Shown here: positions 8,604-39,287 of the stretch, one piece after another
Position numbering within the stretch: the first letter of the stretch is position 1
Layout of the letters: each line of letters opens with the position of its first letter
DNA from: Candidatus Hydrogenedentota bacterium
Lineage (GTDB): Bacteria > Hydrogenedentota > Hydrogenedentia > Hydrogenedentales > JAGMZX01
Reading direction: 5' to 3'
Assembly (NCBI GenBank): GCA_029556545.1
Contig: JAKQEQ010000153.1
Coordinates: 43,348-107,347, forward strand
DNA: 64,000 bases
Translations under genes and position numbers: made by a program
Notes under the pieces: model-generated
Database searches by the model: none
Seen by the model: the letters and a program-made list of their open reading frames with translations, nothing else
Told to the model about the DNA's origin: nothing

Positions 8604-8608
8604 GGCAC

Positions 8609-10821: not shown

Positions 10822-13800
10822 GTGCAACCTGTCTTACACTATCTGCGCGAGATCGAAGAGCAACTCGCCACCGGGCTCGCGACGGAGCATTCGCACCGCG
10901 CCGCATTGCAGCGTCTGGTCCATGCGCTCGGGAAAGACGTGCTCGCCACCAACGAGCCCGCGCGCACGGCCTGCGGCGCGCCCGATTACATCGTTACCCG
11001 CGCGGGAACCATCATCGGTTACATCGAGGCGAAGGACCTCGGGGCGGACCTGAACCAGGTCGAGCGGAGCGAACAACTGGCCCGCTACCTCGACGGACTG
11101 CCCAACCTCATACTCACCGACTATCTCGAATTTCGCTTGTACCACGGCGGGCGCTTCGCGATGGATGCGCGCCTGGCGCGTCTAGACGCCAAGGGCGCGC
11201 TGTGCCCGGACGCAACGGGGCCGGTGGCGCTTGCACGGCTCTTCGACAGCTTCTTCACCGCCGCACCACCGCCCATGGCCACGCCGCAGAACCTCGCGCA
11301 GCGGATGGCGGCCACCGCGCGCCTTCTCTGCGAAGTCATCGGCCGCGTGCTCGAGGATGAGAGCGAGACGGGCGGGCTGCACGGTCAATTGGAGGCGTTT
11401 CGGCGCGTGCTGCTGCACGAACTCGAAGCGGCGCAGTTCGCCGACATGTACGCGCAGACCATCTGCTACGGCCTCTTCGCCGCACGGTGCAACCACAAGG
11501 ACGCGCGCGGGCCGTTCACGCGCGAGGCGGCGGTTCATGAGCTTCCCGAGACGAATCCCTTTCTCCGGCAGATGTTCGGGCATATCGCGGGCCCGGAACT
11601 CGACACGCGCCTCGCGTGGGCCGTCGATCAACTGGCCCAGATGCTCGACCGCGCCGACATGGGCGAGATTCTGCGCGATTTCGGGCGTCGCACGCGCCAG
11701 GAAGACCCGGTGGTCCATTTCTACGAGACCTTTCTCGCGGCTTATGACCCGAGCCTGCGCGAGACCCGCGGGGTGTATTACACGCCCGAGCCGGTTGTCT
11801 CCTACATCGTACGGTCCGTCGACGGCATCCTGAAGCGGGACTTCGGCATCGAGGACGGCCTCGCGGCGACAGACAAGGTTCCGGTCTACGAGACGCATGT
11901 CCCCAACGGCAGCAGGACCTCGAAGGCCGTGCGCAAGAAGGTGGGCGAGGTCCACAAAGTCTTGATTCTTGATCCCGCCGCCGGCACGGGCACGTTCCTG
12001 CACGGCGTGGTGGACCAGATTCACGAAACCGTCGTGACCAAGCGCGGCAAGGGCATCTGGAACGGCTACGTCTCCGAGCATCTCCTGCCGCGTCTCTTCG
12101 GCTTTGAACTGCTCATGGCGCCTTATGCCGTCGCCCACATGAAACTGGGCATACAACTCGCCGAAACCGGCTACGCCTTCCAGAGTGGCGAGCGGCTGCG
12201 GGTCTACCTGACCAACACGCTCGAAGAGGCGTTTGAACTGGGCGGCCTGCCGCTCTTCGCGCATATTATCGCGGAAGAGGCCAACGCCGCCGGCCGCGTC
12301 AAGACACGGCATCCAGTCATGGTCGTGCTGGGCAACCCGCCGTATTCGGGCCACTCGGCGAACAAGGGCGCGTGGATCGCACACCTGCTACGCGGCACGG
12401 ATACGACCTCCGGCGAACGCACCGGGAACTACTTCGAGGTGGACGGGCAACCGCTCGGTGAGCGTAACCCGAAGTGGCTCAACGACGACTACGTGAAATT
12501 CATCCGCTTCGCCCAATGGCGCATCGAGCGAACCGGTTACGGCATTCTCGCGTTCATCAGCAATCACAGCTACCTCGACAACCCGACTTTCCGGGGCATG
12601 CGGCAGAGCCTCATGGAGACCTTCGACGACATCTACCTCCTCGACCTGCACGGCAACGCGAAGAAGAAGGAGGTCGCGCCGGACGGTTCGAAGGACGAGA
12701 ACGTATTCGATATCCAGCAGGGCGTGGCCATCGGCATCTTCGTCAAGCGCAAGAACGGCCCGAAGCGCCGGCTTGCGCTGGTGCGCCATGCGGACTTGTG
12801 GGGCGCGCGGGAGCTCTATGAGCGAACCCCTGACGGCGCGCCACGCCTCGTCGGCGGCAAGCACCGGGCGCTATACGATAGCAACGTGAAATCGACCAAG
12901 TGGACGCGGCTCAAGCCGGAAAGCCCCTTCTACCTGTTCGTGCCGCAAGATACGAAGCGGCTCGAGGAATACAAGGCCGGCCGGAGCATCCCCAAACTGA
13001 TGCCGGTGAATTGCGTGGGCATCGTCACCGCGCGCGACCACCTGACCATTCGATGGAGCGCCGACGAGGTATGGAAGACTGTGCGGGAATTCGCAGGTCT
13101 CCCCCCCGAGACGGCACGGGAACGATTTCGGCTTGGACCGGACGCACGGGACTGGAAGGTCCATCTGGCGCAAGCGTCCGTTCGGGAGTCCGGCCCGACA
13201 CGGGACCATCTGCGACGCATACTCTACCGGCCTTTCGACGTGCGCTGGACCTACTACACCGCCCAGTCGCGCGGTTTCCTGTGCAAGCCGCGCGGCAAGG
13301 TCATGCGCCACATGATCGAGGGCGAGAATCTGGGGTTGTCCACCACGCGCTCGATAGAGATTGGGCGCGGCTGGGAACACGTTTTCTGCACGCGCGAAAT
13401 GATCCAGCATCATACGGTATCAATTAAAGAGGTGAATTACCTTTTCCCGCTCTATCTCTACCCGAAGAACAGGGACGAGGTGGACGACCTCGAGGAGTGG
13501 GGCGCGCGCGAGGCGGCGGCGGAGTACGGCGGCCGGCGCAGGCCGAATCTGGACCCGACGCTTATGGACGAATTGGCGCGGCGGCTGAAGATGGCCTTCA
13601 TCGAGGCCGGGACAGGCGATCTGACGAAGACCTTCGGGCCGGAGAACGTGTTCCATTACGTGTACGCCGTCCTCCATTCACCGTCTTATCGCGCGCGCTA
13701 TGCCGAGTTTCTCAAGCGCGATTTTCCGCGCGTCCCTTTCACGTCGAAGGCGAGACTGTTTCGGGCGCTCTGCGCGCACGGCGCGCGCCTCGTACAGTTG

Positions 13801-14130
13801 CACCTGCTCGAAGCGTCGCCGCAAGGCGGGTTTCTGTATCCCGAGCCCGGCCATAACACAGTGGACACGCCGCGCTACGTGGCGGCGCAAGGCCGCGTGT
13901 ACATCAACCAGACGCAGTACTTTGAGGGCGTCGCCGAAGACGTGTGGAACTTTCACATCGGCGGCTATCAGGTCTGCGAGAAGTGGCTGAAAGACCGGAA
14001 GGGCCGCGCGCTCGACTACGAGGACATCGCGCGTTACATAAGCATCCTCGGCGTGCTGACGGAGACCTTGGCCCTCATGAAAGACATCGACGCCGCCATC
14101 ATGAAGGACGGCGGTTGGCCCCTGGGCTGA
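10822..14130 (+). CDS. Single-chain Type IIG/IIL restriction-modification enzyme (MmeI-like: N-terminal D…ExK nuclease plus gamma-class N6-adenine MTase plus C-terminal specificity region)
   Basis: 1102 aa. The N-terminus (…PDYIVTRAGTIIGYIEAKDLGADL…) matches the D-x(n)-E-x-K arrangement of the MmeI family. The SAM-binding motif I is LILDPAAGTGTFL and motif IV is GNPPYSG (about nt 12331-12351). The C-terminal 500 aa have no catalytic motifs, consistent with a target-recognition region. GTG start. Confidence 0.7.
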   Translation: MQPVLHYLREIEEQLATGLATEHSHRAALQRLVHALGKDVLATNEPARTACGAPDYIVTRAGTIIGYIEAKDLGADLNQVERSEQLARYLDGLPNLILTDYLEFRLYHGGRFAMDARLARLDAKGALCPDATGPVALARLFDSFFTAAPPPMATPQNLAQRMAATARLLCEVIGRVLEDESETGGLHGQLEAFRRVLLHELEAAQFADMYAQTICYGLFAARCNHKDARGPFTREAAVHELPETNPFLRQMFGHIAGPELDTRLAWAVDQLAQMLDRADMGEILRDFGRRTRQEDPVVHFYETFLAAYDPSLRETRGVYYTPEPVVSYIVRSVDGILKRDFGIEDGLAATDKVPVYETHVPNGSRTSKAVRKKVGEVHKVLILDPAAGTGTFLHGVVDQIHETVVTKRGKGIWNGYVSEHLLPRLFGFELLMAPYAVAHMKLGIQLAETGYAFQSGERLRVYLTNTLEEAFELGGLPLFAHIIAEEANAAGRVKTRHPVMVVLGNPPYSGHSANKGAWIAHLLRGTDTTSGERTGNYFEVDGQPLGERNPKWLNDDYVKFIRFAQWRIERTGYGILAFISNHSYLDNPTFRGMRQSLMETFDDIYLLDLHGNAKKKEVAPDGSKDENVFDIQQGVAIGIFVKRKNGPKRRLALVRHADLWGARELYERTPDGAPRLVGGKHRALYDSNVKSTKWTRLKPESPFYLFVPQDTKRLEEYKAGRSIPKLMPVNCVGIVTARDHLTIRWSADEVWKTVREFAGLPPETARERFRLGPDARDWKVHLAQASVRESGPTRDHLRRILYRPFDVRWTYYTAQSRGFLCKPRGKVMRHMIEGENLGLSTTRSIEIGRGWEHVFCTREMIQHHTVSIKEVNYLFPLYLYPKNRDEVDDLEEWGAREAAAEYGGRRRPNLDPTLMDELARRLKMAFIEAGTGDLTKTFGPENVFHYVYAVLHSPSYRARYAEFLKRDFPRVPFTSKARLFRALCAHGARLVQLHLLEASPQGGFLYPEPGHNTVDTPRYVAAQGRVYINQTQYFEGVAEDVWNFHIGGYQVCEKWLKDRKGRALDYEDIARYISILGVLTETLALMKDIDAAIMKDGGWPLG

Positions 14131-21111: not shown

Positions 21112-21182
21112 CGGGCCATTCGTGTTCGATCCGGAAGCATTTCAGGTCCTCACCGCACACGCCGTGGCAAGCGCGCAAGTGT

Positions 21183-21680
21183 TTCTGGATTCCCGCTTGC
21201 GCGGGAATGACGGAGGAGGCGAACGCGGCCTGCCACATCGTCATTCCCGCGAAAGAGTCTGTCGATTTAGGTCGCCTTGGCGCAAGCGGAGACCGACGGC
21301 GGCTATTCCATCAGTGACCTTGGGTGAACGCAATCCATTTAGCCCGCCTTGGCGGGCTCTTCTTTGCACCCGCATTTATGCGGGGTGAAACGGGGACCTC
21401 ATATACAGACAAGCGCGCTTCAGCGCGGCTTTTTCAACGGCTTCCGCATTGTCTCCACGCTGAAGCGGCTCGGCAAGCGGCGCTGAAGCGCCCTCTTCGC
21501 GAAAGTAACAGCCTATTACACCCCGCGTGAACGCGGGTGCAAAGAGGAGCCGCGCTAAAGCGCGCTGACAAGTCCAGCACGCTCTTTGGAAAGAAACATG
21601 GTGGGTCATGGGCACTTATTCTCGCGTTTTTCAGCCCGTCTCCGATTAAATCGACAGACCCGAAAGCGGGAATCCAGAAG
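21183..21680. repeat. Non-coding island with nested inverted repeats (possible mobile-element remnant or structured RNA)
   Basis: Read directly. Outer arms TTCTGGATTCCCGC (21185-21198) and ATTCCCGCGAAAGAGTCTGTCGATTTA (21243-21269) are mirrored by TAAATCGACAGACCCGAAAGCGGGAATCCAGAA (21647-21680). Inner pair GCTCTTCTTTGCACCCGCATTTATGCGGGGTG (21355-21386) matches the inverse GCACCCCGCGTGAACGCGGGTGCAAAGAGGAGC (21519-21550). Several CTTCAGCG/CGCTGAAG mini-palindromes lie between. No convincing ORF. Confidence 0.5.
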
Positions 21681-21776
21681 ACATGAAATATGCGCCTTAA
21701 CCGAACCCGCATGTTGGAACCTCCCTCGCGGGGCCGCTACAATTCAGGAACGACCGACGCATAGGAAACCCCCGCG

Positions 21777-24758
21777 TTGAACCCGGAAGAAAACGGCGCG
21801 CGCCTCACCGCGGCGCAATGGACCTTGCTGGCGTGCATCGTGCTTGTCGGCGCCGCGCTGCGTCTCTATGACCTCGGCGGGCAGAGCCTCTGGTACGACG
21901 AAGGGGCGACCCTCCACCACACGCGTTACGTCGATTGCCGCGGCTCGCTATTCGACATCACGAAGACGACCGAGCCGCCGATGATCACCGTGCTCGCCTT
22001 CCTCTGGCTGCGCCTCCTCGACGCCGTAGCGGACACGCCGATGATTTCCGCTACGAACGACCTTCTGATTCGCCTGTTGCCGTGCCTCTTCGGCGTCTTG
22101 TGCATCCCGCTCGTGTTCGCGGCGGCGCGCGCGTTGCTTCGACGCGCGGACGCCGCTCTCATCGCGGCGTTTCTCTATGCCATCGCCCCGTTCCACATTT
22201 ACTATGCCCAGGAACTGCGCGTATACACGGTCTACACCGCCCTGTCGCTGTGCGCGGTCTACTGTCTCGTAAAGGTCCTTGGAGAAGACCCTCACCCTGA
22301 CCCTCTCCCCGAGGGAGAGGGATCAGGAAAGCGGTACTGGGTCGGCCTGGTTCTCACGGAAGCCCTTCTCCTCTATACCCATTTCATCGCCGTCTGGACC
22401 TTGTTCCTCTTCAACGTCTATTTCGTGTGCACGTTGCCGTGGCAGCGCCGCCGGTTCTGGAAATGGACGGCGTCGCAAGCGGCGGCGGGGCTGTTGGCGC
22501 TGCCCGCGCTGTGGCACCTGTTCAACGCGCTCGATCGCGTGCGCCGCATCGAGATCGCCTGGTACCCCGCGCCGACCTGGAAGACGGGCCTCATCACGTT
22601 CAAGGCGTTCTTCGCGGGCTACAGCTTCAACATATGGGCGTATTGGGCGCTCTTCGCGCTGGCCGCCTTGTTCTTCGCAATCGGTCTCACGCTGCTCGCG
22701 GCGCGACGAGGCCGGGCCGCCCTGCTTACGGCGTTGCTGGCGATCGTACCCATTGCCGCCAACATCCTCATCTGGAAAGACCGGCACTTCTCGTTCTACG
22801 AGCATCGTCCGTTCATCTTTTCCGGCGCCGTCGCCCTGTTCGCGATCGCCTACGCACTGGCGGCGCTGCGTCCCCGCGCCCTGCGCATCGGCGCGCTGGT
22901 CCTGTTTGCCGTGCTCACCGCGCCGCACCTGCGCGAACTCTACGCCCACCGGGTGCATCCCATCGAGACGCACCGACTCGCCGTGTACGACAAGAGCGAT
23001 TTCCGCTCCGCGGCCGCGTACCTGCGCGACCATTTCGAGGAAGGCGATCTGATTTGCCACGCGAACCATTTCACGATGTACTCGATGCGCCACTACCTCG
23101 ACCTCCCGCAAACCCGCGTCGGCGCGCACGATTGGGACTGGGACGTGATGGCCAACAGCCACGGCAACCCGGCGCTCGCCGAGGCGCATGACCTCATGCC
23201 TGTGCGCGTCGAGGAGGCGACCCGCGACGCCCGCCGCGTCTGGTTCATCGAGTCGCACGGCCTGACTTTCGAGTACAAGCCGCACACCGAGCCGGTCCGC
23301 GCATGGTTCGAAACCAACTTCCGCCGCGTGGACCATCAGGAATTCTTCGGCCTCACCGCCACGTGTTACGCGCGCTATGACGGCCCGCCGCCACGCATGC
23401 CCAATGTCGTCTTCCTGCTGCTCGACACCGTGCGGGCGGATCGCCTCGGCGCGACGCGCAACGGCCTGCCCGTGACGCCGCACCTCGACGCCTTCGCCGA
23501 TGAGGCCGTGGTGTTCGCGAACACGGTGACGCCCTGCAGTTGGACGAAGCCCGCCATGGCCTCGATTTTCACGGCCCGCTACGTGGACGCCCATGGCGTT
23601 TTCTACAGCGCGCGCATCGAGGACCCGGACCACCCGGTCAGCGACGTGTTGCCGGACGAATTCGAGACGATGGCCGAGTTCCTCGCGCGCCACGGCTACG
23701 ACACCTTCGCCGTGCAAACCAACGCGAACCTGACCCGCGCCGCGGGTTTCGCCCAAGGCTTCGACGAGGGGCGCTACCTCTTCCAGAACGGCTGGCGCGC
23801 GGACTGGGTGACGGGCCAGGCGCTTCACACGCTCGATGTGTTGCGCGAGCCCTTCTTCGCCTACTGCCACTACATGGACCCCCACGCGCCTTACGACCCG
23901 CCCGAGACGCACCGCGACGTCTTCGGACCCGAGCCGGACCTCACCGAACAGGACCGCGCCCTTCTCGACAACGACACGTTCATGGCCTATTGCCTCGACC
24001 GCGTAAAGGTTGCGCTCGGCCTCGAAGACGGGCACGCGATGCCCGAGTTCTCGCCACAAGGCAAGGAGTACGTACGCCAACGCTACGACAGCGAAATCCG
24101 CTACATGGACGACGAACTCGGCCCGCTTCTCGATCGCGTCCGCGCGAAATACCCGCACAGCGTCATCATCATTGCATCGGACCACGGCGAGGAATTCTGG
24201 GAACGCGGCGGCATGGGCCACGGCGCGACGCTTCACCGAGAGCAACTGCGCGTCCCGCTGCTCATCCGCGCCCCGGGACTCCCCCGCGGCCGCGTCGAGA
24301 CGCCCGCCGAACTGCTCGACATCCTGCCGACCGTCGCCCGGCTTATCGGCGCCGACGCCGACCCCGCGTGGCAGGGCAAAGACCTCTTCCGCGCCGACGC
24401 CGTCCATGAACCGCGTTTCTCGCGCACCTACGGGCCCTGGCCGGAACTCCGTGTTGACGCCGAGGCCGTCCTCGACGGCGGCGCGAAGCTGATCCGCGAC
24501 AATACGCACGAACAGACGCGGCTCTACGACCTCGAAACCGACCCTGGCGAACATAACGACCTCGCCCCCGATCAACCGGAACGCGCGCAGGCGCTTACAT
24601 CGACGCTCGACGATCACCGCCGCAAAAACGAGAAACGCCGCGGCGCGGTCGCCCAGCAAGAGACGCGCCTCGACGACGAAACCCGCGCCATGCTCGACGC
24701 CATGGGATACGTGGATTCCACAAGCCATCCCGCCCAAACGGATACGAACAATCGGTAA
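21777..24758 (+). CDS. Fusion protein: N-terminal GT-C glycosyltransferase (GT39/ArnT/PMT-like) plus C-terminal sulfatase-family (alkaline phosphatase superfamily) domain
   Basis: 993 aa. The N-terminal ~500 aa have ~11 TM helices with a DE motif in the first extracytoplasmic loop (…SLWYDEGATLHH…), typical of ArnT/PMT. The C-terminal ~480 aa carry metal and substrate motifs (…VVFLLLDTVRADRLG…, …HYMDPHAPYDPPE…, …IIIASDHGEEFWERGG…). The canonical C/S-x-P-x-R formylglycine motif is absent (TPCSWTKP), so this is probably not a true sulfatase. TTG start with AGGAAA 9 nt upstream. Confidence 0.65.
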   Translation: MNPEENGARLTAAQWTLLACIVLVGAALRLYDLGGQSLWYDEGATLHHTRYVDCRGSLFDITKTTEPPMITVLAFLWLRLLDAVADTPMISATNDLLIRLLPCLFGVLCIPLVFAAARALLRRADAALIAAFLYAIAPFHIYYAQELRVYTVYTALSLCAVYCLVKVLGEDPHPDPLPEGEGSGKRYWVGLVLTEALLLYTHFIAVWTLFLFNVYFVCTLPWQRRRFWKWTASQAAAGLLALPALWHLFNALDRVRRIEIAWYPAPTWKTGLITFKAFFAGYSFNIWAYWALFALAALFFAIGLTLLAARRGRAALLTALLAIVPIAANILIWKDRHFSFYEHRPFIFSGAVALFAIAYALAALRPRALRIGALVLFAVLTAPHLRELYAHRVHPIETHRLAVYDKSDFRSAAAYLRDHFEEGDLICHANHFTMYSMRHYLDLPQTRVGAHDWDWDVMANSHGNPALAEAHDLMPVRVEEATRDARRVWFIESHGLTFEYKPHTEPVRAWFETNFRRVDHQEFFGLTATCYARYDGPPPRMPNVVFLLLDTVRADRLGATRNGLPVTPHLDAFADEAVVFANTVTPCSWTKPAMASIFTARYVDAHGVFYSARIEDPDHPVSDVLPDEFETMAEFLARHGYDTFAVQTNANLTRAAGFAQGFDEGRYLFQNGWRADWVTGQALHTLDVLREPFFAYCHYMDPHAPYDPPETHRDVFGPEPDLTEQDRALLDNDTFMAYCLDRVKVALGLEDGHAMPEFSPQGKEYVRQRYDSEIRYMDDELGPLLDRVRAKYPHSVIIIASDHGEEFWERGGMGHGATLHREQLRVPLLIRAPGLPRGRVETPAELLDILPTVARLIGADADPAWQGKDLFRADAVHEPRFSRTYGPWPELRVDAEAVLDGGAKLIRDNTHEQTRLYDLETDPGEHNDLAPDQPERAQALTSTLDDHRRKNEKRRGAVAQQETRLDDETRAMLDAMGYVDSTSHPAQTDTNNR

Positions 24759-24883
24759 GGCTGAATAGGGCATAATAGTCGCCGGAAAGCGGGATTCCGC
24801 GGCACGGTTTGACGCTCTGCTGTTCTTGCGCAATCAAGATGCGCGGGTTGGCCACCCCACAAGGGGAAGGAAATGACCGAACG

Positions 24884-26254
24884 ATGATCGACACACTGAG
24901 ATGCATGCGGACTTTATCGATTCTGCTCCGAAGCGGCCTTCTGCTGAACCTGGCGTCGCTGCCGGCGTGTGCGAACGCGACGGCCATGCCGGGGCTCGCC
25001 GAATTCGGGATTACGTACTGGTGGGGACCGCCGCCGTCTGAAACGAATCCGGCGCGGTACGACGAGATCAAGTCGGCGGGGTTCAACCTGGTGAGCTTGC
25101 CTTCGCCGGATGTACGAGACGAGTTTCACCCATACTTCGACAAAGCGCTCAACACCCGAATCCTCGACTTGTGCGCGGCGCGCGGCATGAAGGCGCTGGT
25201 GGCGGATCAGCGCATGGCCGAGGCGCTGGGCGCGGATGGGCACGCGGTGGACGAGATTCTGGACGGGATTGTCGCCGACTACAAGGACCACCCCGCTCTA
25301 TATGGATATTACGTGGTGGATGAACCCACGACGGAACGGTACCCGCGGTTGGCCCGGATCGTAGCGCGTCTCCGCGAGAAGGACCCGGCCCACGTGGCCT
25401 ACGTTAACTTGTTTCCCATTTACGCTCCCGCCGAGTTTCTCAAGGCAAAGGATTACCAGGAATACGTGGAGCGCTTCGTGACCGAGGTGAAGCCGGCCTT
25501 CATCAGCTACGACAATTATCATTTCGTGTTGCCAAATGTGCTGGTGAAACGGCCGGAATCGTTCGCGAGCGACCAGGAACAAGCAGTCTGGGAAACAGCC
25601 CACGCCGCCGCGCAGGGGGATGACCGCCCGGGTTTTTTCGACAATCTGGAGATTGTGCGCGCGGTGGCCATGAAACACGACTTGCCGTTCATGGTTATTG
25701 TGCTGCTCACCACGCACGGGCTCTACCGCGACCTGACCGAACCGGAATTGCGGTGGGAAGCGTTCCAAACGCTGGCGTATGGCTCATCATGCCTGTCCTG
25801 GTTCACCTACTGGGCGCCGCCGGATGACGACGCCTGGCATTTCCGCAACGCGGTCTTCAACTGGGACGGGCAAATGACGGACCACTATGGGGAGGTAACA
25901 CGGGTCAACGCGGATGTCCGCGTGCTGGGCAACAAGCTCATGGGTAAGGGGAGCGAGGCGGTCTATTGCGTAGGATCGGAACGCAATCAATTGGTGCGGC
26001 GCTTCGTCCCCCATGGGCCCGTGCGGGCTATCGAGGGACCGCGCTTGACCGCCGGGTTCTTCGAGGGCGGCTATCTCTTGCTGGCCCACAAGAACTATCG
26101 CGAAGCGGGAGAGGTTACACTGTACCTGACCGACGGAGCAAAGGCGTGGCTTATTGACAAACCCACCGGTACCGAGCGGCCATTGACCGTGCATGATGGC
26201 AAGGTAACGTTGACACTGGCGCCGGGCGACGGCGACCTGCTGCGGCTCGAATGA
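24884..26254 (+). CDS. Secreted TIM-barrel-like protein, possible glycoside hydrolase
   Basis: Signal peptide MIDTLRCMRTLSILLRSGLLLNLASLPACANA. …YYVVDEPT… and …ISYDNYHF… strands resemble GH clan-A catalytic strands. No firm family assignment. Confidence 0.45.
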   Translation: MIDTLRCMRTLSILLRSGLLLNLASLPACANATAMPGLAEFGITYWWGPPPSETNPARYDEIKSAGFNLVSLPSPDVRDEFHPYFDKALNTRILDLCAARGMKALVADQRMAEALGADGHAVDEILDGIVADYKDHPALYGYYVVDEPTTERYPRLARIVARLREKDPAHVAYVNLFPIYAPAEFLKAKDYQEYVERFVTEVKPAFISYDNYHFVLPNVLVKRPESFASDQEQAVWETAHAAAQGDDRPGFFDNLEIVRAVAMKHDLPFMVIVLLTTHGLYRDLTEPELRWEAFQTLAYGSSCLSWFTYWAPPDDDAWHFRNAVFNWDGQMTDHYGEVTRVNADVRVLGNKLMGKGSEAVYCVGSERNQLVRRFVPHGPVRAIEGPRLTAGFFEGGYLLLAHKNYREAGEVTLYLTDGAKAWLIDKPTGTERPLTVHDGKVTLTLAPGDGDLLRLE

Positions 26255-26317
26255 ACGCACCGCTTTCGTAATCGTGGTTTGATACGGGCAGGGCGTGGAT
26301 GGGCTGCGCGGCGCGTG

Positions 26318-27967
26318 TTACGGCTTCGCGTCCGGTTCCACATGATACACGGCCACGCCGCCGCGGCGAAAGACCTCGACAAGCCAGGGGTGGTCCGCGG
26401 GTTCCGCGCCGTTGTGGACCCACTCGTAGGGACCGAAGACGACGTAGCGCACGTTGAACCGGCGCGCGAGCCAGCGTTTGTACTCGTCTTCGCCGCGCGC
26501 GGCGTAAAAACGGTGGACGAGACCGTTCTTCTCTCCGTAATTCGCGGTGAGCATGTCATGACCGGTCACGACCTTGTTGCGGCTGAGGCGCGGGATGAAT
26601 TGCGAGGTGTCGTGACTCGCGAGGGCGACTTCATTCGGGCGCGTGTGGGCGTCAAGCCATTCGAGCGCGGCGTGTACGTCTTTGTCGAGGTAATACCGCC
26701 ACGGCGGGACCGGCCCGTGGAGGTCCTTGAAATCGCGGGCGTACACGTAGCCGGACGACGGCCCGCAGGCCAGCACCAGCACGAGGGCGGCCCAGGCGCG
26801 CCACGGCGGGGCGGTCAGGCGATCGACGACGCGAGGCGCGAGGCGGCGGGTCCATTCCAGCAGCGCGGGGCCCGGCCCAAGCAGCAGCAATATCGGCGGC
26901 GCGATGGTCAAGGCCCAGAAGCAGAGTTCCTGCCCGGCGATGAAGTATGGATACGTGTGTATGAGCAGCATGACGACGCCGATCCACAGGCCGAGCAGGA
27001 GCGTCGCGGGCCGCGCGCCGCGCAGCTTCGTAAACCCGGTCAGCAGGAAGTAGCCGACGACGATCACGAAGGGGATGCCTAGCCAGAGCGCCTGTTCGAG
27101 GAAGAACAGGCTTTGCCGCCGCCAGCCGGCCATGCCGAGCACGTTGGCATACGCGGTGAGCGCCAGGTACGCCGCCGTCGGCAGGAAGACGAGGCCCGCG
27201 ACGGCGTACGGCGCGAAGCGCCGCCATTGCCACCGGCCCTCGGCCACGTTCAGCAGCGCGGGGAACAGCGCGTACAGCAAGTAGACCTCCGGCACGAGGT
27301 AGGGCCGGATAATCCCGTGGCCCGTGGCGGCGAGGCCGCTGTAGACGAAGTAGCGGAGTTTGCCCGTGGCCTCGCCGCGCAGCAGGAACGCGACCGTCAA
27401 CGCGGCGAAGATGCCCGCGCGGACAAAGTGGGGGTTGTTGACGAGGTAGCCGAAGACGGACACCCCGAGCAGGTCGTGCGGATAGGGCAGGTCCATGCCG
27501 GCGGCTTTGCGGGCGATCCACACGGTCCAGCCGAGGCCCGAGCCGAACACGATCAGCGCCAGCGCCAGCCGCCGCAGGAACACGCTGTCGAGGCACGCCG
27601 CCAACAGGTAATACACCGCGCACGTGAACAGGACCATCGACGCGACGCGCCAGATGTGGAACATGGCAATCATCGAGAGGCCGGTCCACCGCACAAGCCG
27701 CCCGAACAGGAGCCATTGCAGGCTGAAATACGCCTGCGGCGTCGGCTCGGGCGTCATGCGGTTGACCATGAAGACCTCGCCCTCGGCGGCCTGCCGCGCG
27801 AGCATGAAGTAGCCGTTCGCGCCCGGCGTCCCGCGCCCGACAAAGCCCATGAACACTTCATCCGGTCCCGCGCTCAGGTAGCCGTAAACATACGGCAGGC
27901 TCCCGATGATGACCACGACCGCTCCCAGGACAAGCGGGAAGACGTATTCGCGGCGCGCGCACTGCAT
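26318..27967 (-). CDS. Polytopic membrane protein, probable GT-C-fold glycosyltransferase
   Basis: 549 aa, at least 11 TM helices. DE motif in the first loop (…LSAGPDEVFMGF…) and a C-terminal soluble ~150 aa. Overlaps the downstream sulfatase-like gene by 1 nt. Confidence 0.45.
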   Translation of the reverse strand: MQCARREYVFPLVLGAVVVIIGSLPYVYGYLSAGPDEVFMGFVGRGTPGANGYFMLARQAAEGEVFMVNRMTPEPTPQAYFSLQWLLFGRLVRWTGLSMIAMFHIWRVASMVLFTCAVYYLLAACLDSVFLRRLALALIVFGSGLGWTVWIARKAAGMDLPYPHDLLGVSVFGYLVNNPHFVRAGIFAALTVAFLLRGEATGKLRYFVYSGLAATGHGIIRPYLVPEVYLLYALFPALLNVAEGRWQWRRFAPYAVAGLVFLPTAAYLALTAYANVLGMAGWRRQSLFFLEQALWLGIPFVIVVGYFLLTGFTKLRGARPATLLLGLWIGVVMLLIHTYPYFIAGQELCFWALTIAPPILLLLGPGPALLEWTRRLAPRVVDRLTAPPWRAWAALVLVLACGPSSGYVYARDFKDLHGPVPPWRYYLDKDVHAALEWLDAHTRPNEVALASHDTSQFIPRLSRNKVVTGHDMLTANYGEKNGLVHRFYAARGEDEYKRWLARRFNVRYVVFGPYEWVHNGAEPADHPWLVEVFRRGGVAVYHVEPDAKP

Positions 27968-29544
27968 CAGAAGTACCCCAGGTTGCGCAGTTGTTCCTCG
28001 AGGGCCGGGTCAAGCGTCGGGGCGCGTTCCGCCGGCCCCGCGCCGTCGGTGTAGCCGATGGCTTCGAGCTGTTCCCGCAGGTCCGGGGGCAATTGGCCCA
28101 TTTCCGCGCGGATTTTCTCGCTTTCCAGCGCGGGCGCGGGGCAGCGGTCCCGGTACTCGTCGAGGATCGTGCGAAACGGCGCGGCCGCCGTCTCCTCGAA
28201 GATATCCCGCCGCTGCGCCGGGTCCGCGGTCAAGTCATAGAGTTCCTCGCGGGCCGGTGCTCCCCAGAGGTCGATCGGGGCCGTCTGACCGTCGATGAGC
28301 GCCCGGCGCAGTTCCCGTTGGCGCCTTGCAGCCTCCGAACACTCCGCGGGCGTCATCCACTTCGGCGCGGCCATGTAAGCCCGCTCGTCCGCGTGGACCA
28401 TGCGCGCGAGATTGCGCGTCTGGATCAACAGTTCCGCAATGATGGGCCGCGCATGCGCTTGGAACGACCACTGTGTCCCGTCGTGACGAAAGAGGGCCGC
28501 GCCGTCGAAGCGCGCGGGGTCATAGGGGATACCCGCGAAGGTCAGGAGCGTCGGCGCGATATTCACAAGCGATATGCGGTCCGGGACGCGCGCGGGCGCG
28601 AAAACGCGCGGCGCCCAGACAATCAGCGGGACGTGGAGCGATTCCCAGTAAAGTTGCCAGGCGTGCTCGACGAACCCGTGTTCGAGAAATTCCTCGCCGT
28701 GATCGGCGGTGACGACCACCAAGGTCTTCTCGAGCACGCCCGCCGCGCGCAGCCCGTCAAAGAGTTTCTTGAGATGCGCATCGACGAACGCGATCTCGGC
28801 GTCGTACCGGTCGATCAGGTCCTCGAAGCGCGGGTCGCCCGGCCCGAAACCGTCGGCGACGAGCGCGGGCAGGTTGGGCCGCACGTCCTCGAACAGGCGC
28901 AGGCGCTTGTCCTTGGCGACGGGATAGCGCGCGAACCGCTGGTAATACTCCTCGGGGGGATCGTAAGGCGCGTGCGGATCGAGGAAATGCAAGTACAGGA
29001 ACGTCTTCTTGTCGCGATGGTCGCGCGCGAAGCGCAGCGCGCGGTCCACCAGGCGCGGCGCAAGGCCGCTGTGGCCGTAAGCGGCATAGCAATCGGTCTC
29101 GTCGAAGCCGCGAAAGAAACCCGGATAGTTCAACTGCGGCGAATTCGAGAACAGGCCGGTCGTATAACCGGCGTCGCGGAAGCGTTCGCCCAGCGTCGGC
29201 CACTCGGGATTGGGCCGCGCCTGCCAGCCCGCGCCCCACGGGTTCGCCGAGGGAAACTGCCCCGAGAAGAGCGCGGAAACGGACTCGTTGGTGTAGGACG
29301 AGTTCGACTGCGCGCGATCGAAAACGACGCCCTCCGCCGCGATCGTGTCAAGGAACGGCGACGTGGGCCGCGCGTAGCCGTAACAGCCGAGGTGGTCCGC
29401 CCGCAGCGCGTCGATAACGATCACGAGCAGGTTATGCTCGGCGAGGTCCGCCGGAACGCGGTCTTGGCGGCCGCACCCGGCTATCAACGCGACGCCCGCG
29501 AAGATTGCCGACACGCCCAACCGACTGCAATAACCCATAGCCAC
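27967..29544 (-). CDS. Sulfatase-family (alkaline phosphatase superfamily) lipoprotein, paralog of the C-terminal domain of the 21777-24758 fusion
   Basis: Lipobox …GVALIAGCG. Shares …HFLDPHAPYDPPE… and …VVVTADHGEEFLEHG… with the fusion protein. Has no C/S-x-P-x-R motif. GTG start per the track (alternative ATG at 29538). Confidence 0.65.
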   Translation of the reverse strand: MAMGYCSRLGVSAIFAGVALIAGCGRQDRVPADLAEHNLLVIVIDALRADHLGCYGYARPTSPFLDTIAAEGVVFDRAQSNSSYTNESVSALFSGQFPSANPWGAGWQARPNPEWPTLGERFRDAGYTTGLFSNSPQLNYPGFFRGFDETDCYAAYGHSGLAPRLVDRALRFARDHRDKKTFLYLHFLDPHAPYDPPEEYYQRFARYPVAKDKRLRLFEDVRPNLPALVADGFGPGDPRFEDLIDRYDAEIAFVDAHLKKLFDGLRAAGVLEKTLVVVTADHGEEFLEHGFVEHAWQLYWESLHVPLIVWAPRVFAPARVPDRISLVNIAPTLLTFAGIPYDPARFDGAALFRHDGTQWSFQAHARPIIAELLIQTRNLARMVHADERAYMAAPKWMTPAECSEAARRQRELRRALIDGQTAPIDLWGAPAREELYDLTADPAQRRDIFEETAAAPFRTILDEYRDRCPAPALESEKIRAEMGQLPPDLREQLEAIGYTDGAGPAERAPTLDPALEEQLRNLGYF

Positions 29545-30093
29545 GGCATCCGTCCCTCGATGTGTGCCGCCCTATCATAGAGGTTTCTTGGGGGAACGGC
29601 CAAACAGGGGACACGACGGGACGATTCGGCCTCGGGGCCGCCCCCGGCGCGCGCGGCATACCTCACCGCCCGCCGGATATGGACGCCGCACTACCCGGCG
29701 GACACGTCCACAGACACGAACCCCCTTGGCCGGTCAGTAGAGTTGGGTCACACCCTGCCCCGCCAGGAGAACTGCTCGCGAGCGCGATTGACGATGGCGG
29801 TCGCTACTTCGCGCCGAGCACCTGGACGACCACCGTCACGACGGTGGCGACCGCGGACAAGGCCGCGCCGACGATGGTGAGGATTTGCACTGTGCTCAGT
29901 TGCGCTTCCGCCGGGCCTTTCGAGATAACGCTGATGTGCTTCATAGTCCCTTTTCCACCTTCCGTAATGACACAGGTTCCACTACCCCGCGAGAATTGCG
30001 GACCGGAAAACCCCCGCGCGGCAAGCGTTAGTATACCGGCGCGCGCCCGCGAAGTAAATACGGCGCGCGCGCCCCGACCGTTGACGCGCGGGC

Positions 30094-33981: not shown

Positions 33982-35826
33982 CTACTCGATGGCGACCGCT
34001 TCCCGATAGGCCGCATCGTAGCGCGCGGCGGCCTCGGGGTCGTTGTGCAGCACGAGCACCGCGCAGTCGCGCAGCGCGTCGAGCGTGACCCGCGCGTGAC
34101 CGTCCGCGACCTCGAAGGCGATCGGGCGCACGCCGTCGGGCGCGAGGCGCAGCGCGGTCGCGGGTTTGATCCACGCCGGCAGCGGCACGGCGATCCGCGC
34201 GTCCGTCTTCTCGACAAACGGGTACGCCTCGGGGTGAATCTCGTAATCGAGATTCGTCACGCACAGGATCAGGGCGTCCCACGTCACCAGCGGCGCGACA
34301 TCCGTCTTCTCCGGGGCCTCGATATCGAGGGCAACCGGCTCGGACGCCAGGAAATCCTCGCGCGCCATGCGCAGGACGCGCCCCCAGCCTTGCATCGCCT
34401 CGACGGCATCGGGGAAGCGCTCGGCAATCTCGCGGTCGTGGTTGAACCACAGGATGCCCTTCGCACCGCGGCCGAGATTGAGCACGAGTTGCGCGGCCAG
34501 TTCCTCGGGCGTGGGTACGGTGCGCTTCGGGCGCTGCGTCCAGTCGGCGATGCCCTGCGTCCAAATCCAGATGGGCTTGGGTTCGGCGACGCGTTTCAGG
34601 TCGCGCGTGTAATACGCCGTTTCCTCGAGGCGCGTGCCGTATAGGCGCGGCCACTTGCTGCTCGACGGCGCGGTGACGGAGTAGTGGTCCTGGCACGCGA
34701 TGTCCGGGATGGGCGCGTACTCGAAGAACTTGATGTTCCGGCAAAGCGTAATGAACGTGGGCTTGGTCCGGTCGTACTGCCGCAGCGTGCGGTCGACGAA
34801 TTCCATGATATTCGGCGGGATCGACCAGTCGGGCTCGTCCTGAAGCATCCAGCAAACCACGCTGGGATGCCCCGAGAACTCGCGCACCGTATCCACGTTC
34901 ACGGGGACCCCCGTGTGCACCATCGCGCGGAACCCGTACTTCGGCGCGGCCTCCGCGAAGAACGGCGCCTCCTTGTTTCCGCCCGCGACCATCGTGTCGA
35001 TGTGCAGGCGATGGAGCGCGTCGAAGGTCTCGGGGCTGTTCGTCCACGTGCCGATGGGGAAGAAGTCCTCGAAGGCGCGGCGGTGCGCGTATACCGCGCG
35101 TGAGTCCTCGCCGGTCTTCACGGTCGCCCGCACCACGAATAACGCCGCCGTCTCGAAGGGCGCGTCGAAGCGCGCGCGGGCGATCGTGTGGCCCGGCCCT
35201 TCGAGTCGCTGGGTGGTCCACTCGACAGCGGCGGGCGGCTTATCAACGACTTCTAAGCTTTCAAACGCTATGGGCGTCTCCCCGGCGTAGCGAATGTGGA
35301 CCTCGATCGTGTCCAGCCCCGGCAATACGCGGATGCACGCAATCTGAACCGGGTCTTCACCCAAGATGCCCTTGAAGGCCGCCACGGGCCGCCACGTCCC
35401 GTCGATGTAGCTGAAGTCGAACGGTTCGCCCTCGGCGAAACCCGGCGTGATGCCGTTGATCTCGAGAACCCCGAGCCGCCCCGGCGCGAGGGTGCCGTGC
35501 CACGCGCGGTCCCACGCCACGAAATGATTCAATCGCCAATACGATTCGTCGTTGCCGTTCAGGCGCCAATAACGGAGATCGAGCGGCGCGTCGCTGATGT
35601 TCGTGTAATAGACGTAGACCAGTCCGCCGCGATTCGGGTGTTCGCTCTCGAACTCCTGGACGTGTTCCGTTTCCCAGCGCGCGGGCCGAAAATGGACATA
35701 TTCGATGCGCAGTTTGTCCGAGGCGCGCGCCTTCGCGTCACCGCCCACCTGCGCCGTCTGCGCAAACCCGGGCGGCACCATGCAGGAAACCAGCAGCAAC
35801 GAGACCATAAACGCTTTTCCCACCAT
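33982..35826 (-). CDS. Secreted hypothetical protein (possible glycan-active enzyme)
   Basis: Signal peptide MVGKAFMVSLLLVSCMVPPGFAQT; 614 aa; no recognisable motif. Co-oriented with and immediately downstream of addA. Confidence 0.45.
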   Translation of the reverse strand: MVGKAFMVSLLLVSCMVPPGFAQTAQVGGDAKARASDKLRIEYVHFRPARWETEHVQEFESEHPNRGGLVYVYYTNISDAPLDLRYWRLNGNDESYWRLNHFVAWDRAWHGTLAPGRLGVLEINGITPGFAEGEPFDFSYIDGTWRPVAAFKGILGEDPVQIACIRVLPGLDTIEVHIRYAGETPIAFESLEVVDKPPAAVEWTTQRLEGPGHTIARARFDAPFETAALFVVRATVKTGEDSRAVYAHRRAFEDFFPIGTWTNSPETFDALHRLHIDTMVAGGNKEAPFFAEAAPKYGFRAMVHTGVPVNVDTVREFSGHPSVVCWMLQDEPDWSIPPNIMEFVDRTLRQYDRTKPTFITLCRNIKFFEYAPIPDIACQDHYSVTAPSSSKWPRLYGTRLEETAYYTRDLKRVAEPKPIWIWTQGIADWTQRPKRTVPTPEELAAQLVLNLGRGAKGILWFNHDREIAERFPDAVEAMQGWGRVLRMAREDFLASEPVALDIEAPEKTDVAPLVTWDALILCVTNLDYEIHPEAYPFVEKTDARIAVPLPAWIKPATALRLAPDGVRPIAFEVADGHARVTLDALRDCAVLVLHNDPEAAARYDAAYREAVAIE

Positions 35827-35876: not shown

Positions 35877-38800
35877 TCAGGCGTCGCCCGGAAGTTCCAC
35901 AACGTCTTCGAGCGACGGCGCGACGCCCCGCAACCGATCCACGGCCTCAAGCGCATGCCGCTCCGCCAGCGCCACCTCGTCCGCGCCCAGCGCCACTTCG
36001 TGTACGTGGCCGCTGTCGACGTAGCAGAGGATGCCGCGATCCGGCGTCACGCCGCGCAACCGCCGCAGCGCCGCCGCATATAGGAGCAACTGCCATTCGT
36101 AGCGCGCCTGGGCCGCGTCCCGGACCACGCCCGTCTTGTAATCGATGATCGTGCCGTCGCTCAGCAGCGCGTCAATCGTTCCGTTGATCAGCACCTCGTC
36201 GAGCCGGATCGAAAACGGCGTTTCGCGCAACAGGCCGTCATCGCGCCGCAGCCGGTCCGCCAACGGCAGCGCCTGAAAGCGCTCGGCGACGCCGCGCAAG
36301 TCGGCGGCCACTTCGGGCCACAGGCGGCGCGAAACCTCGGCTTCCCGCAACAGCGCCGTCGTGTCGGGCGGCGCGGCGAAGTCCCATAGCTCGAACATGC
36401 GATGCACGAGCGAGCCCCGGACCAGCGGATTCAAACGTCCCGGTGTGACCGTCGCAACGCCGCCCGCGGATTCGTGACCGGGCGCTTCGTCGCTCCACAG
36501 GCCCGCCATCGCGTTGAGGATGCCCGACACCGAGAACCTGTGCCGCGCCGACACGACGCCGGTCAGCGGCGCGACCATGCGCTTCACCTCGTCAAGAGCG
36601 GGCAAGGCAACACGTTTCTTCTTCTCGGCTTTCGCGCGTTTCCGCGGTACGGTTCGCCGCACGCGGACCGACCAGCCTTCCCCTGCGTGGCACGGGCGTC
36701 CCGCCCGTGATTCCCGAGCATCAATAACCGCCCCATCCCGTTGCCCCGTCACGCCGAAGTGCGCATCGAGCAGTTCGAGCCAGCTTCCCTTGCGCGGGTC
36801 CGGCGCGCCACTCAGCACGAGGCAATCGCGCGCGCGCGTCATGGCCACGTACAGCACGCGCGCGTGCTCCGCCGCTTCTTCCTCGACCTGGCGGCGGCGC
36901 ACGGCCTCGCCAAGCGCCGGGGCCGTGCGTTCGCCGTCGTCCCCGGTCACTGAGACCGCGATCCCGAGTTCGCGGTGCAACGGCACGGCGGGTCTGTTCG
37001 AACCGCGCGGCACGGACGACGTGTCCGGCAAAAACACGACCGGAAATTCGAGGCCCTTGGCCTTGTGCACCGTCATGATCGTGACCGCGCCCGCGCCCTC
37101 GGGCTGCATCGGGGCCTCGCCTTCGCGCACGGCCTGATCGCGCACTTCCCGGATATACGCGATGAACGCGCGCGGCGTGGCCGGGCGGGTCCGCGTGAAG
37201 TTGTCGGCGAGGTCCACGAGTTTGCGCACGTTCGACGCCTTCTGGAGGCCGAGAAACTGATTGAGCAACAGGGCTTCATAACCCGTTTCTTCGAGCACGC
37301 GGCGCAACAGATCGAGCAATGGCCGCGCCAGTTCGCCGCGCAGCTTGTCAAGGAGCGCGCGGGCGCGCCGCCACTCGGCGGTCTGCCCGAGGTCCTCCGG
37401 TTCGATGCCTTGATCGAACGCCGCGCCAAGGCCGCCGCACCGCGCCAGACGCAGGATCGATTCATCGGACAGCCCCACGATGGGACTGCGCAAATAGGCG
37501 AGCAGCGCCGGCTCGTTCCAGGGATCGATCAGCGATTCGAGCAGGTTCAGTACGTCCAGCACCTCCTGCTGCTCGTAGAAGCCCGCGCCCGCCATGACCA
37601 TGTAGGGAATGCCCGCGCGGCGCAGCGCTTCCTCGTAGATGAACGTGTTGCTCATGGCGCGCAGCAGCACCGCCACGTCGCCGTAATCGGCGGGCACGCG
37701 CGCGCCGTCGCGCTCGATCTCGAGCCGTGCCGTCCCGTCGCACATCTCCTGAATCCGCGCGGCGATGAGTTCCGCCTCGGCGCGCCGGTAGACCTCGACG
37801 TTGGCCTCTTCGACCGGTTCCGGCAGCAGGAACTCGATGCGCGGCGCGCTCCAGGCGGCGCGTTCCGCGGCCATGGGCGCGTAATCCTGTGTGGTATCGA
37901 GAAGCCGGGACGCGGCGAAAAAGGCGTTTACGCCATCCAACAGGTCCGGGATCGTGCGGAAGTTCCGGTCAAGCTGGATAACCTTCTCGGAAACGCCGCG
38001 CTGCTCGTTGAAGACCTCGACCTCCGCGCCGCGAAACAGGTAGATCGACTGCTTCGCGTCGCCGACGATGAAAAGGTCCGGGCCGCCGGGCTCGCCGTGC
38101 AACAGCCGCGCTATTTCGAGCTGCACGTGGTCCGTGTCCTGGAATTCATCGATGAGCAAATGCCGGATGCCTTCCGCGACGCGCTTCCGCAACGGCTTGT
38201 AATCGCGCAGCATATGCAGCGCTTTCAAGATCAGGTCGTCGAAGTCCAGGCCGTTCACCGCCGCCTTGGCGTCGTCGTGCGCCGCCGCCACGTGCTGGAA
38301 GATGCGGCAGAGGTCCGCCGTGCGTTGCGCGGCCTGTTCCTCGAGGGCTTCGTCCGGCTCCTCGGGCAGGAATCCCTTCGCGAAATCAACGATGTCTTTC
38401 TGCGCCTTCACGAGGTCCTCGTACATCTCCTCCGAGGTCCAGTTCTTCTTCGCGCCTCTCCCGCCGTCGAAGGTGATTATTCGGTTCAAAGCGCGCTCGG
38501 TGGCCGCCGCGCCCGGCGCGTCGAGGACGGCGCTGAGCGCGTCAAGATACGCCAGGCGGCGCTGCTCCCGTCCGTCGTCTTTGGCGGCGCATGCGCCCGC
38601 AAACCCGGCCAGTTGGTCGATAAACCGCCGCACACGCGGCATCCGGGGCAGCGCTTCGAGGCGACGCTGCCGTTCGTCCCGCAGCGCGTCCTTCCACTGC
38701 CGGCGCAGCGCCTCCGGGTCGTCCAACGCGCAGTCGCTGCCCAGCCGCTCGATGACCGACCGCTTATGCAACATGTCCTCCATCAACGCGGTCAATTCCT

Positions 38801-39287
38801 GGAGCGACCACTCTTCGGCGGCGCGCAACACGACGGGGTCGCCCCTCTCCATCAGGTCATCGAGCGCGCCGTTGACCGTCTCCGAGAGGAGCAGCGCCGC
38901 GTCGGCGTCGGCGAGCACGACGAAATCGGGATCGAGCCCGATGTGCAGCGCGTTCTCCCGCAGGAGCGTCGAGCAGAAGGTGTGAATCGTCGAGATGCGC
39001 GCGCCGTCGATGCGCCGCTCCATCTCGCGCCAGCGCGAGAGTTCTTCCGGGTTGTCCCCCGGCGCTTTCTTGCGGAACGCGGCCCGCAGCCGCGCCTTCA
39101 TCTCGGACGCGGCGTTCTCCGTGAACGTGATCGCGACCATCTGATCGATCGACACGTTCCGCTGCTCGATGAGGTGCACGATGCGGTCGACGAGCACGCG
39201 CGTCTTCCCCGAACCCGCGCCCGCGTCCACGCACACGGCACGCGCGCGCGCGCGAATGGCGGCCTCCTGTTCCGGCGTCCAGTTCAT
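35877..39287 (-). CDS. addA: ATP-dependent helicase/nuclease subunit AddA (UvrD-like helicase plus RecB-family nuclease)
   Basis: MNWTPEQEAAI… start, Walker A GAGSGKT, DEFQDT (motif II), a C-terminal PD-(D/E)xK nuclease region (…IDALLSDGTIIDYKTG…); 1136 aa. Confidence 0.9.
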   Translation of the reverse strand: MNWTPEQEAAIRARARAVCVDAGAGSGKTRVLVDRIVHLIEQRNVSIDQMVAITFTENAASEMKARLRAAFRKKAPGDNPEELSRWREMERRIDGARISTIHTFCSTLLRENALHIGLDPDFVVLADADAALLLSETVNGALDDLMERGDPVVLRAAEEWSLQELTALMEDMLHKRSVIERLGSDCALDDPEALRRQWKDALRDERQRRLEALPRMPRVRRFIDQLAGFAGACAAKDDGREQRRLAYLDALSAVLDAPGAAATERALNRIITFDGGRGAKKNWTSEEMYEDLVKAQKDIVDFAKGFLPEEPDEALEEQAAQRTADLCRIFQHVAAAHDDAKAAVNGLDFDDLILKALHMLRDYKPLRKRVAEGIRHLLIDEFQDTDHVQLEIARLLHGEPGGPDLFIVGDAKQSIYLFRGAEVEVFNEQRGVSEKVIQLDRNFRTIPDLLDGVNAFFAASRLLDTTQDYAPMAAERAAWSAPRIEFLLPEPVEEANVEVYRRAEAELIAARIQEMCDGTARLEIERDGARVPADYGDVAVLLRAMSNTFIYEEALRRAGIPYMVMAGAGFYEQQEVLDVLNLLESLIDPWNEPALLAYLRSPIVGLSDESILRLARCGGLGAAFDQGIEPEDLGQTAEWRRARALLDKLRGELARPLLDLLRRVLEETGYEALLLNQFLGLQKASNVRKLVDLADNFTRTRPATPRAFIAYIREVRDQAVREGEAPMQPEGAGAVTIMTVHKAKGLEFPVVFLPDTSSVPRGSNRPAVPLHRELGIAVSVTGDDGERTAPALGEAVRRRQVEEEAAEHARVLYVAMTRARDCLVLSGAPDPRKGSWLELLDAHFGVTGQRDGAVIDARESRAGRPCHAGEGWSVRVRRTVPRKRAKAEKKKRVALPALDEVKRMVAPLTGVVSARHRFSVSGILNAMAGLWSDEAPGHESAGGVATVTPGRLNPLVRGSLVHRMFELWDFAAPPDTTALLREAEVSRRLWPEVAADLRGVAERFQALPLADRLRRDDGLLRETPFSIRLDEVLINGTIDALLSDGTIIDYKTGVVRDAAQARYEWQLLLYAAALRRLRGVTPDRGILCYVDSGHVHEVALGADEVALAERHALEAVDRLRGVAPSLEDVVELPGDA

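Follow-up and report, generated by a model that had tools for sequence, protein, structure and literature searches.

Within a 64,000-nucleotide stretch of DNA (the window) from a metagenome-assembled genome, whose genes have exact sequence matches that carry the name Candidatus Hydrogenedentota, we analysed four neighbouring genes, here termed A, B, C and D. Three of them, A, C and D, may form a periplasm-facing module that modifies an envelope glycan (or a glycolipid or glycoprotein) and consists of two pairs, each of a GT-C membrane glycosyltransferase and a threonine-type enzyme of the sulfatase fold; we put the probability of this reading at roughly 0.5. Our best guess, by analogy with known systems, is that the module would couple glycosylation to phospho-substitution of a periplasmic envelope glycan.

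The two pairs differ in the way in which their parts are joined. Gene A (21777-24758, forward strand) encodes both parts in a single protein of 993 amino acids that is identical to JGI gene call P0001. On the reverse strand the sulfatase-fold lipoprotein D (27967-29544, 525 amino acids; two codons shorter in the JGI call, with a possible alternative start ATG at 29538) and the GT-C-fold membrane protein C (26318-27967, 549 amino acids, NCBI HNR31407.1) are separate genes. The stop codon of D and the start codon of C overlap in the sequence TGATG (27965-27969, reverse strand), which suggests that the two are translationally coupled. The hypothetical gene B lies between both units on the forward strand (24884-26254 from an ATG, 456 amino acids; an upstream TTG at 24809 would give 481) and encodes a hydrophobic N-terminus. 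All four open reading frames were found at the coordinates listed in an earlier first-pass annotation, as was the one-nucleotide overlap of C and D. Related loci are referred to by the working labels L001-L027 and their proteins by labels from P0001 onward.

The active sites of the sulfatase-fold domains

Residues 536-960 of A (23382-24656, forward strand) form a sulfatase-fold domain of the alkaline-phosphatase superfamily, and the Pfam Sulfatase family PF00884 matches A at residues 542-858 (E 2.4e-40) and D at residues 38-339 (E 1.1e-51). The two domains are 28% identical over approximately 500 amino acids (E 9e-36), and the motifs DPHAPYDPPE and DHGEEF, reported earlier as near-identical, are present in both and appear in their alignment. 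Also borne out is the reported absence of the formylglycine motif C/S-x-P-x-R, since both domains have Thr there and Met, Val or Ile stands in place of the Arg. The key residues are D550, T590, H703, D802-H803 and H815 in A, and D45, T85, H191, D281-H282 and H294 in D, with T590 (codon 23544-23546) and T85 (codon 29290-29292) at the formylglycine position. A phmmer alignment pairs T85 of D with the Cys of 'CGSSR' in structure 4upl and V89 with its Arg; a pairwise hidden Markov model (HMM) alignment sets T590 of A opposite the formylglycine residue of 7oz8 and 4upi, with P592 at the motif Pro and M594 opposite the Arg. Between Thr or Ser and Cys as the nucleophile, a choice that the first-pass annotation had left undecided, both domains thus present Thr. 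The AlphaFold2 model of A predicts T590 as the first residue of a helix (590-599), as is usual for the nucleophiles of this superfamily.

This arrangement was followed through an alignment of 11 A-type sequences, 120 D-type sequences and 12 more distant relatives that are fused to TPR or HEAT repeats, where the D-type counts here and below refer to the best 120 of more than 2300 relatives that match D at E < 1e-10. The formylglycine position holds Thr in 11/11 A-type and 120/120 D-type sequences, and 10 Thr and 2 Ser among the 12 repeat-fused ones. Invariant throughout are the Asp of strand beta1, the PHxP His, the DHG Asp-His and, 13 residues past that Asp, a further His. The region that corresponds to the sulfate-binding K-x-H is unrelated (FSNS in D, VQTN in A), and the second Lys position of sulfatases is a His in 131/131 A- and D-type sequences.

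Thr cannot be converted to formylglycine. With Thr at this position, the metal ligands kept and the sulfate binders Arg and Lys-x-His lost, the C-terminal domain of A and protein D, judged by their sequences, use the scaffold of a sulfatase but are not sulfatases. They share the fold and the Asp/Asp-His(Asn) metal ligands of S1 sulfatases and phosphonate monoester hydrolases such as SpAS2 and choline sulfatase, and differ from them in having Thr for the Cys or Ser that becomes formylglycine, and in the replacement of the CxPxR Arg, the Lys-x-His and the second Lys. The pattern of acid, Thr, His, Asp-His and His instead matches that of Thr-nucleophile phosphoryl-transfer enzymes such as LtaS, GacH and EptA. 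The earlier proposal that these domains are phospho-group transferases or hydrolases rather than true sulfatases is still something we infer, and the active-site residues favour it.

Sulfatases are nevertheless the best Pfam, NCBIfam and PDB matches of both domains, and genes with an FGE-sulfatase domain (FGE, formylglycine-generating enzyme) occur no more than 5 kb away in three related loci, so that one could see here genuine sulfatases or sulfatase-like catabolic enzymes placed by chance beside membrane proteins, in a glycan-degradation locus where B would be a glycoside hydrolase. We consider this highly improbable: neither Cys nor Ser is found at the formylglycine position of any A- or D-type relative, the Arg, Lys and His that bind sulfate have gone, the NCBIfam arylsulfatase scores of both domains (98-106 bits) are far under the cut-offs of 433-481, the domains have glycosyltransferases as partners, and B is not a conserved gene. 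The domains could also be non-catalytic and serve to bind an acceptor or to regulate the partner, comparable to YejM/PbgA in its periplasmic part or to the modules for carbohydrate binding that some GT-C enzymes carry as fusions. This too is very unlikely, as the nucleophile, the three metal ligands and the two His are kept in 131/131 A- and D-type sequences at 28-76% identity, as one would expect of a working site. The published Mn-arylsulfatase of E. faecium is a Cys enzyme.

Beyond the sulfatase-fold domain, A ends in a short tail (24657-24758, forward strand) that carries the motif [LIMV]xx[LIMV]GY, here as MLDAMGY. The motif lies within the last 90 residues, sometimes repeated, in 11/11 members of the A family and 107/119 of the D family, compared with 0/46 of the C family. 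Its sites in the window are 24675-24710 (A residues 967-978) and the C-terminus of D (around 27970-28100), and it occurs in the relatives P0002-P0011 and P0079-P0197. It could be a docking or sorting peptide; we know of no description of it.

The membrane domains of A and C

The first 397 residues of A (21777-22967, forward strand) form a GT-C membrane glycosyltransferase domain with about 11 transmembrane helices. Matches of the first 540 residues to the Pfam families are below the gathering cut-offs (PMT_2, PF13231, 20.1 bits against 26.1; PMT, PF02366, 7.6 against 22.7). Precomputed PF13231 matches are present in 9/10 fused homologues of A, and its orthologues also carry PF02366 matches. 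A profile built from 13 A sequences matches yeast Pmt1 and Pmt4 (E ~1.5e-6) and aligns 'LWYDE' of A to the DE motif 'VFDE' of these protein mannosyltransferases (PMTs; FDE of Pmt1). The residues concerned, D41 and E42 (codons 21897-21902), lie in the first extracytoplasmic loop and are invariant in the A family. The N-terminal half of A is, on the strength of these alignments, a PMT/ArnT-like GT-C protein with an invariant DE motif of the catalytic type, and the earlier assignment of this domain to the GT-C class is upheld by the multi-pass membrane fold and by the DE motif that aligns with PMTs.

Both catalytic parts of A are joined by an alpha/beta domain that follows the last transmembrane helix (residues 398-535, 22968-23381, forward strand), with secondary structure taken from the AlphaFold2 model, where the predicted local distance difference test score is mostly >90. 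The same domain is kept in P0012-P0016, homologues that consist of the N-terminal part only. Fusion of a GT-C domain to a sulfatase-fold domain, described earlier as uncommon, is indeed rare but not unique, as it was found in 11 clusters with PMT_2 and in one with YfhO.

Protein C, which the first-pass annotation had called GT-C-like, does have a GT-C membrane fold, with a C-terminal globular domain that resembles that of archaeal AglB. It has no sequence-level match among Pfam families or PDB chains. The first-loop DE motif that had been reported for both membrane proteins holds for A only: in C, Asp occupies position 36 in 18/38 sequences and Glu position 37 in 25/38, and any Asp or Glu at 34-38 is found in 33/38. 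What is invariant in the C family is D165, an acid in a later loop, together with H180 and N69. Nor can the membrane parts of A and C be called paralogous, as had been claimed, since their BLAST E value is 0.08 and hhalign gives a probability of only 80%; by sequence they belong to different and very distant GT-C families. Recent duplication was rejected as the source of both units, as the sulfatase-fold domains are just 28% identical and the membrane parts cannot be aligned by BLAST. Membership of C in the oligosaccharyltransferases (STT3/PglB/AglB, GT66) was likewise rejected, because it has no WWDYG motif and no sequence-level match.

Among 1.84 billion cluster representatives, 6822 match a profile of C, 1940 of them at E < 1e-30. 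Relatives that have source names, Chloroflexota and Armatimonadota included, are called hypothetical or, generically, 'glycosyltransferase involved in cell wall biosynthesis'. Fusions to GT2, YfhO or BNR domains occur in the family, and some members adjoin DUF2079, GT4 or Wzx-type (flippase) genes. From the fold, these fusions and the glycan-gene neighbours it follows that C is a member of a large GT-C family that lacks annotation and is linked to the synthesis of surface glycans. Compared with the characterised GT-C systems, namely the PMTs (GT39), ArnT (GT83), STT3/PglB/AglB (GT66), AftA (GT85) and the three-component systems of extracytoplasmic glycosylation (GT136), the fold is shared, and the likeness extends to the first-loop DE in A and the AglB-like domain in C. 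The differences are that A has no MIR domain of the kind found in PMTs and carries the putative phospho-enzyme domain instead, and that C has neither a Pfam or PDB sequence match nor a WWDYG motif nor a fixed acid in the first loop.

Linkage of the genes and proposed activity

A, C and D are linked by synteny, by alternative fusions and, as read from the overlap, by translational coupling. Their pairing recurs fused, split and reshuffled in related genomes, which settles an earlier concern that it might be chance adjacency. In L001, where A is 74% identical, C and D come straight after A, D and C again overlap by one base, and B is missing. L003 (54%) has A and C on the same strand, then a methyltransferase gene and D on the opposite strand, and in L004 (34%) the domain fused to the GT-C part is of the D type, not the A type, and C comes next. 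Locus L006 is fully split into D, a methyltransferase gene, C, a gene for the N-terminal part of A only and a convergent gene for a 920-amino acid protein with two A-type domains, each with Thr. P0008 joins a GT-C domain to two Thr-type domains and is preceded by an overlapping GT2 gene (L005), and in P0023 another GT-C domain, related to YfhO/PTPS, is fused to a sulfatase-fold domain. A survey of 24 species-representative loci with close relatives of C (Hydrogenedentota, Nitrospirales and one Desulfoferrobacter) has D directly beside C, usually upstream and overlapping, in 13 of the approximately 20 loci with enough flanking sequence, Nitrospirales included; in Desulfoferrobacter C is near two PMT_2 genes instead of D.

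That A, C and D belong to unrelated pathways and are neighbours by coincidence we regard as nearly negligible. The flanking genes are housekeeping genes that differ between genomes, and relatives of D and of C also occur alone; yet the adjacency outlasts inversion, insertion, fission and fusion in two phyla while the identity of A falls from 74% to 34%. Gene B is different. It is missing from the orthologous loci L001, L003, L004 and L006, and its 90% cluster contains this species only. B had been described earlier as a secreted TIM-barrel-like protein, which no match bears out: searches of Pfam (up to E 10), NCBIfam and the PDB sequences gave nothing for it, and it is not similar to a GH5-like neighbour in L022. 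The earlier picture of two modules built around B does not survive this comparison: as it is absent from every orthologous locus, B is an inserted, species-specific bystander outside the conserved module.

Several other genes accompany the module in related loci. A DUF72 gene adjoins the A or C homologue in L001 (8983-9900), L003 (9027-9908), L004 (6763-7665), L006 (13422-14327) and L023 (3848-4789) and may be an accessory member. In six loci (L014 576-1301, L018 7406-8236, L019 9238-9951, L021 ~9100-9760, L022 9120-9809, L025 145-705) a conserved open reading frame of about 230 amino acids with no Pfam match lies immediately upstream of D or C; it is absent from the window, and the high GC content of the DNA leaves its coding strand uncertain. 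In L003 and L006 a similar place is taken by an S-adenosylmethionine methyltransferase gene. The window lacks the DUF72, methyltransferase and GT2 genes of related loci. Genes with the FGE-sulfatase domain (PF03781) lie up to about 5 kb from the module in L001 (20941-21780), L004 (15028-16716) and L006 (14609-16519), in two of the three fused to a Ser/Thr kinase, which is odd as the domains of the module cannot carry formylglycine.

In GT-C proteins the DE loop and the domains that follow the transmembrane helices face the periplasm. Because of the GT-C homology of A and the lipobox of D (IAGC, with Cys24, as read from the sequence), we infer that the fused sulfatase-fold domain of A and protein D are periplasmic; hydropathy and positive-inside counting are too crude for topology, and the placement rests on this homology and lipobox. 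In the proposed mechanism the GT-C parts would take a sugar from a donor linked to polyprenyl phosphate and place it on an acceptor at the outer face of the inner membrane. The Thr enzyme paired with each would form a covalent phospho-Thr intermediate and then pass a phospho-substituent, perhaps of the phosphoglycerol or phosphoethanolamine type and drawn from a membrane phospholipid or a lipid carrier, to the same acceptor. Fusion in A, or the lipid anchor of D and its coupling with C, would hold the phospho-enzyme at the membrane surface and so replace the dedicated transmembrane domain of LtaS, EptA and GacH. A context for such a donor is given by the GT2 gene that overlaps the A homologue in L005 and by the occurrence of fusions between GT2 and the C family.

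Precedents for a glycosyltransferase and a phospho-enzyme that act together are ArnT/EptA on lipid A and PglB/EptC on the Campylobacter N-glycan. Among the closest known systems are GacL and GacH (and SccH) of streptococcal rhamnopolysaccharide biosynthesis, where GacL and GacH place a sugar and a phospho-substituent on the same acceptor, as proposed here for A and for D with C. GacH has 11 transmembrane segments, uses phosphatidylglycerol as donor and has Thr530 as nucleophile, with E488, T530, D711 and H712 as Mn ligands and H650 also in the site (bioRxiv 10.1101/337519). A Thr at the nucleophile position, at the start of the helix after strand 2 and beside the metal site, is common to A, D and the Thr phospho-transferases LtaS, GacH, EptA/MCR, OpgB and BcsG. 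The membrane domain of GacH is not reported as GT-C (the term is absent from 10.1101/337519), whereas that of A is GT-C; GacH falls in the LtaS clade, while the C-terminal domain of A and D are closer to S1 sulfatases; and the hosts of GacL/GacH are streptococcal, whereas those here are the diderm Hydrogenedentota and Nitrospirota, in which A would, from its sequence, hold both activities in one polypeptide. Lipoteichoic acid, on which LtaS and YfhO act, is a proposed parallel for the paired GT-C and Thr enzyme; three-component GT-C glycosylation of this polymer has been described (PMC5836110), and periplasmic post-polymerisation glycosylation exists as a concept (PMC11127046). Unlike LtaS/LtaP with CsbB-GtcA-YfhO (GtlB), the module has no LtaS domain with five transmembrane helices, and the window has no GT2 or GtcA gene. 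The NCBIfam scores of the A and D domains are far under the cut-offs for LtaS (24 bits against 970), EptA (46 against 561) and EptB (35 against 493). In comparison with EptA/MCR-1/EptC they have an extra C-terminal subdomain typical of sulfatases, and where EptA has a domain of five transmembrane helices A has the GT-C domain and D a lipid anchor (a single signal sequence).

Several points weigh against a glycan-modifying module. The window contains no gene for a polyprenyl-phosphate sugar synthase (GT2) or a flippase, sequence cannot separate a transferase from a hydrolase, and the A and D domains resemble hydrolytic sulfatases more than LtaS or EptA. C lacks a position-invariant acid in its first loop, some C genes have no D (L015, L022, L027), and members of the D family at 43-48% identity stand alone in unrelated contexts. 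A constant GT-C partner was sought across the wider D-family contexts and none was found.

A serious rival, which we think possible but on balance unlikely, is that the Thr-type domains are hydrolases of the periplasm, either phosphatases or phosphodiesterases, which serve the GT-C partner by processing its lipid carrier or acceptor. They may cleave polyprenyl-(di)phosphate leftovers for carrier recycling, or remove a phosphate or phospho-substituent from the acceptor before it is glycosylated, and hydrolases that liberate the carrier exist as a concept (PMC11898649). Repeated fusion to a glycosyltransferase, however, fits action on a shared acceptor at least equally well. The known carrier recyclers are PAP2 proteins, BacA, alpha/beta hydrolases and metallophosphoesterases rather than proteins of this fold. 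It is also conceivable, though improbable, that A and the D-C pair alternate sugar transfer and phosphodiester formation to build or extend a teichoic-acid-like glycosyl-phosphate polymer at the periplasmic face of these diderms (Hydrogenedentota, Nitrospirota).

The wider window and significance

The neighbours of the four genes are housekeeping genes, with those for SurE, a thioesterase and cytidine deaminase upstream and those for a PilT-like ATPase, URO-D and AdoHcy hydrolase downstream; anything special in the region is limited to genes A-D. Four sigma-70-like sites were observed in the region against 1.5 expected, among them a match upstream of A (21714-21743, forward strand, 9/12 positions) and one upstream of D (29574-29603, reverse strand), both weak evidence for a promoter. 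The Rfam scan of the region gave a single sub-threshold match, located inside gene A. The 665-bp gap 5' of A (21112-21776) holds a nested imperfect palindrome of about 500 nucleotides (core 21183-21679), composed of five inverted-repeat pairs with a folding energy of -265.9 kcal/mol (z = -9.97 against shuffled sequences). It is present once in the window, L009 and L024 share only matches of 30-34 nucleotides with it, and it has no Rfam match. It stands where related genomes have the DUF72 gene and may be an insertion like a miniature inverted-repeat transposable element or a structured leader.

Elsewhere in the window, a Type ISP restriction-modification enzyme of 1146 amino acids (10690-14130, forward strand) has a Type_ISP_C match at E 5e-90 and an N6 methylase motif. 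On the reverse strand are an AddA/AddB-type helicase-nuclease pair (35877-42595), with a UvrD helicase and PD-(D/E)XK in one protein and AddB_N and PD-(D/E)XK in the other, and two open reading frames of 706 and 614 amino acids (6977-9097 and 33982-35826) with coding-like third-position GC content and no Pfam match at E 1e-3. A membrane protein of the LPG_synthase_TM family adjoins a class A penicillin-binding protein (3110-4318 and 4363-6495, reverse strand); these are envelope genes that are unlinked to the module.

In the literature no paper was found on a GT-C/sulfatase-fold fusion, on the C family or on the Thr-type proteins of the sulfatase fold, and the papers on Hydrogenedentes and glycosyltransferases looked unrelated from their titles and abstracts. 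All components are members of known superfamilies, and for their coupling there are precedents in Gram-positive bacteria. The results mark as non-sulfatases a large set of proteins that are annotated 'sulfatase/arylsulfatase', all of the best 120 D matches being of the Thr type, and this bears on metagenomic sulfatase counts in Hydrogenedentota, Nitrospirota and similar phyla. The C family, widespread and with neither a Pfam nor an NCBIfam model, gains a fold and a genomic partner, and if the glycosyl-phosphate polymer were true it would belong to a class of envelope polymers that neither Hydrogenedentota nor Nitrospirota is known to possess, with C a new GT-C family at the CAZy level. The fusions provide Rosetta-stone evidence that GT-C glycosyltransferases and Thr phospho-enzymes act as a unit, a coupling known experimentally only from Gram-positive wall polymers (GacL/GacH, lipoteichoic acid) and, more loosely, from lipid A modification. 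The acceptor, if found, would open up the envelope chemistry of phyla that have hardly any cultured members.

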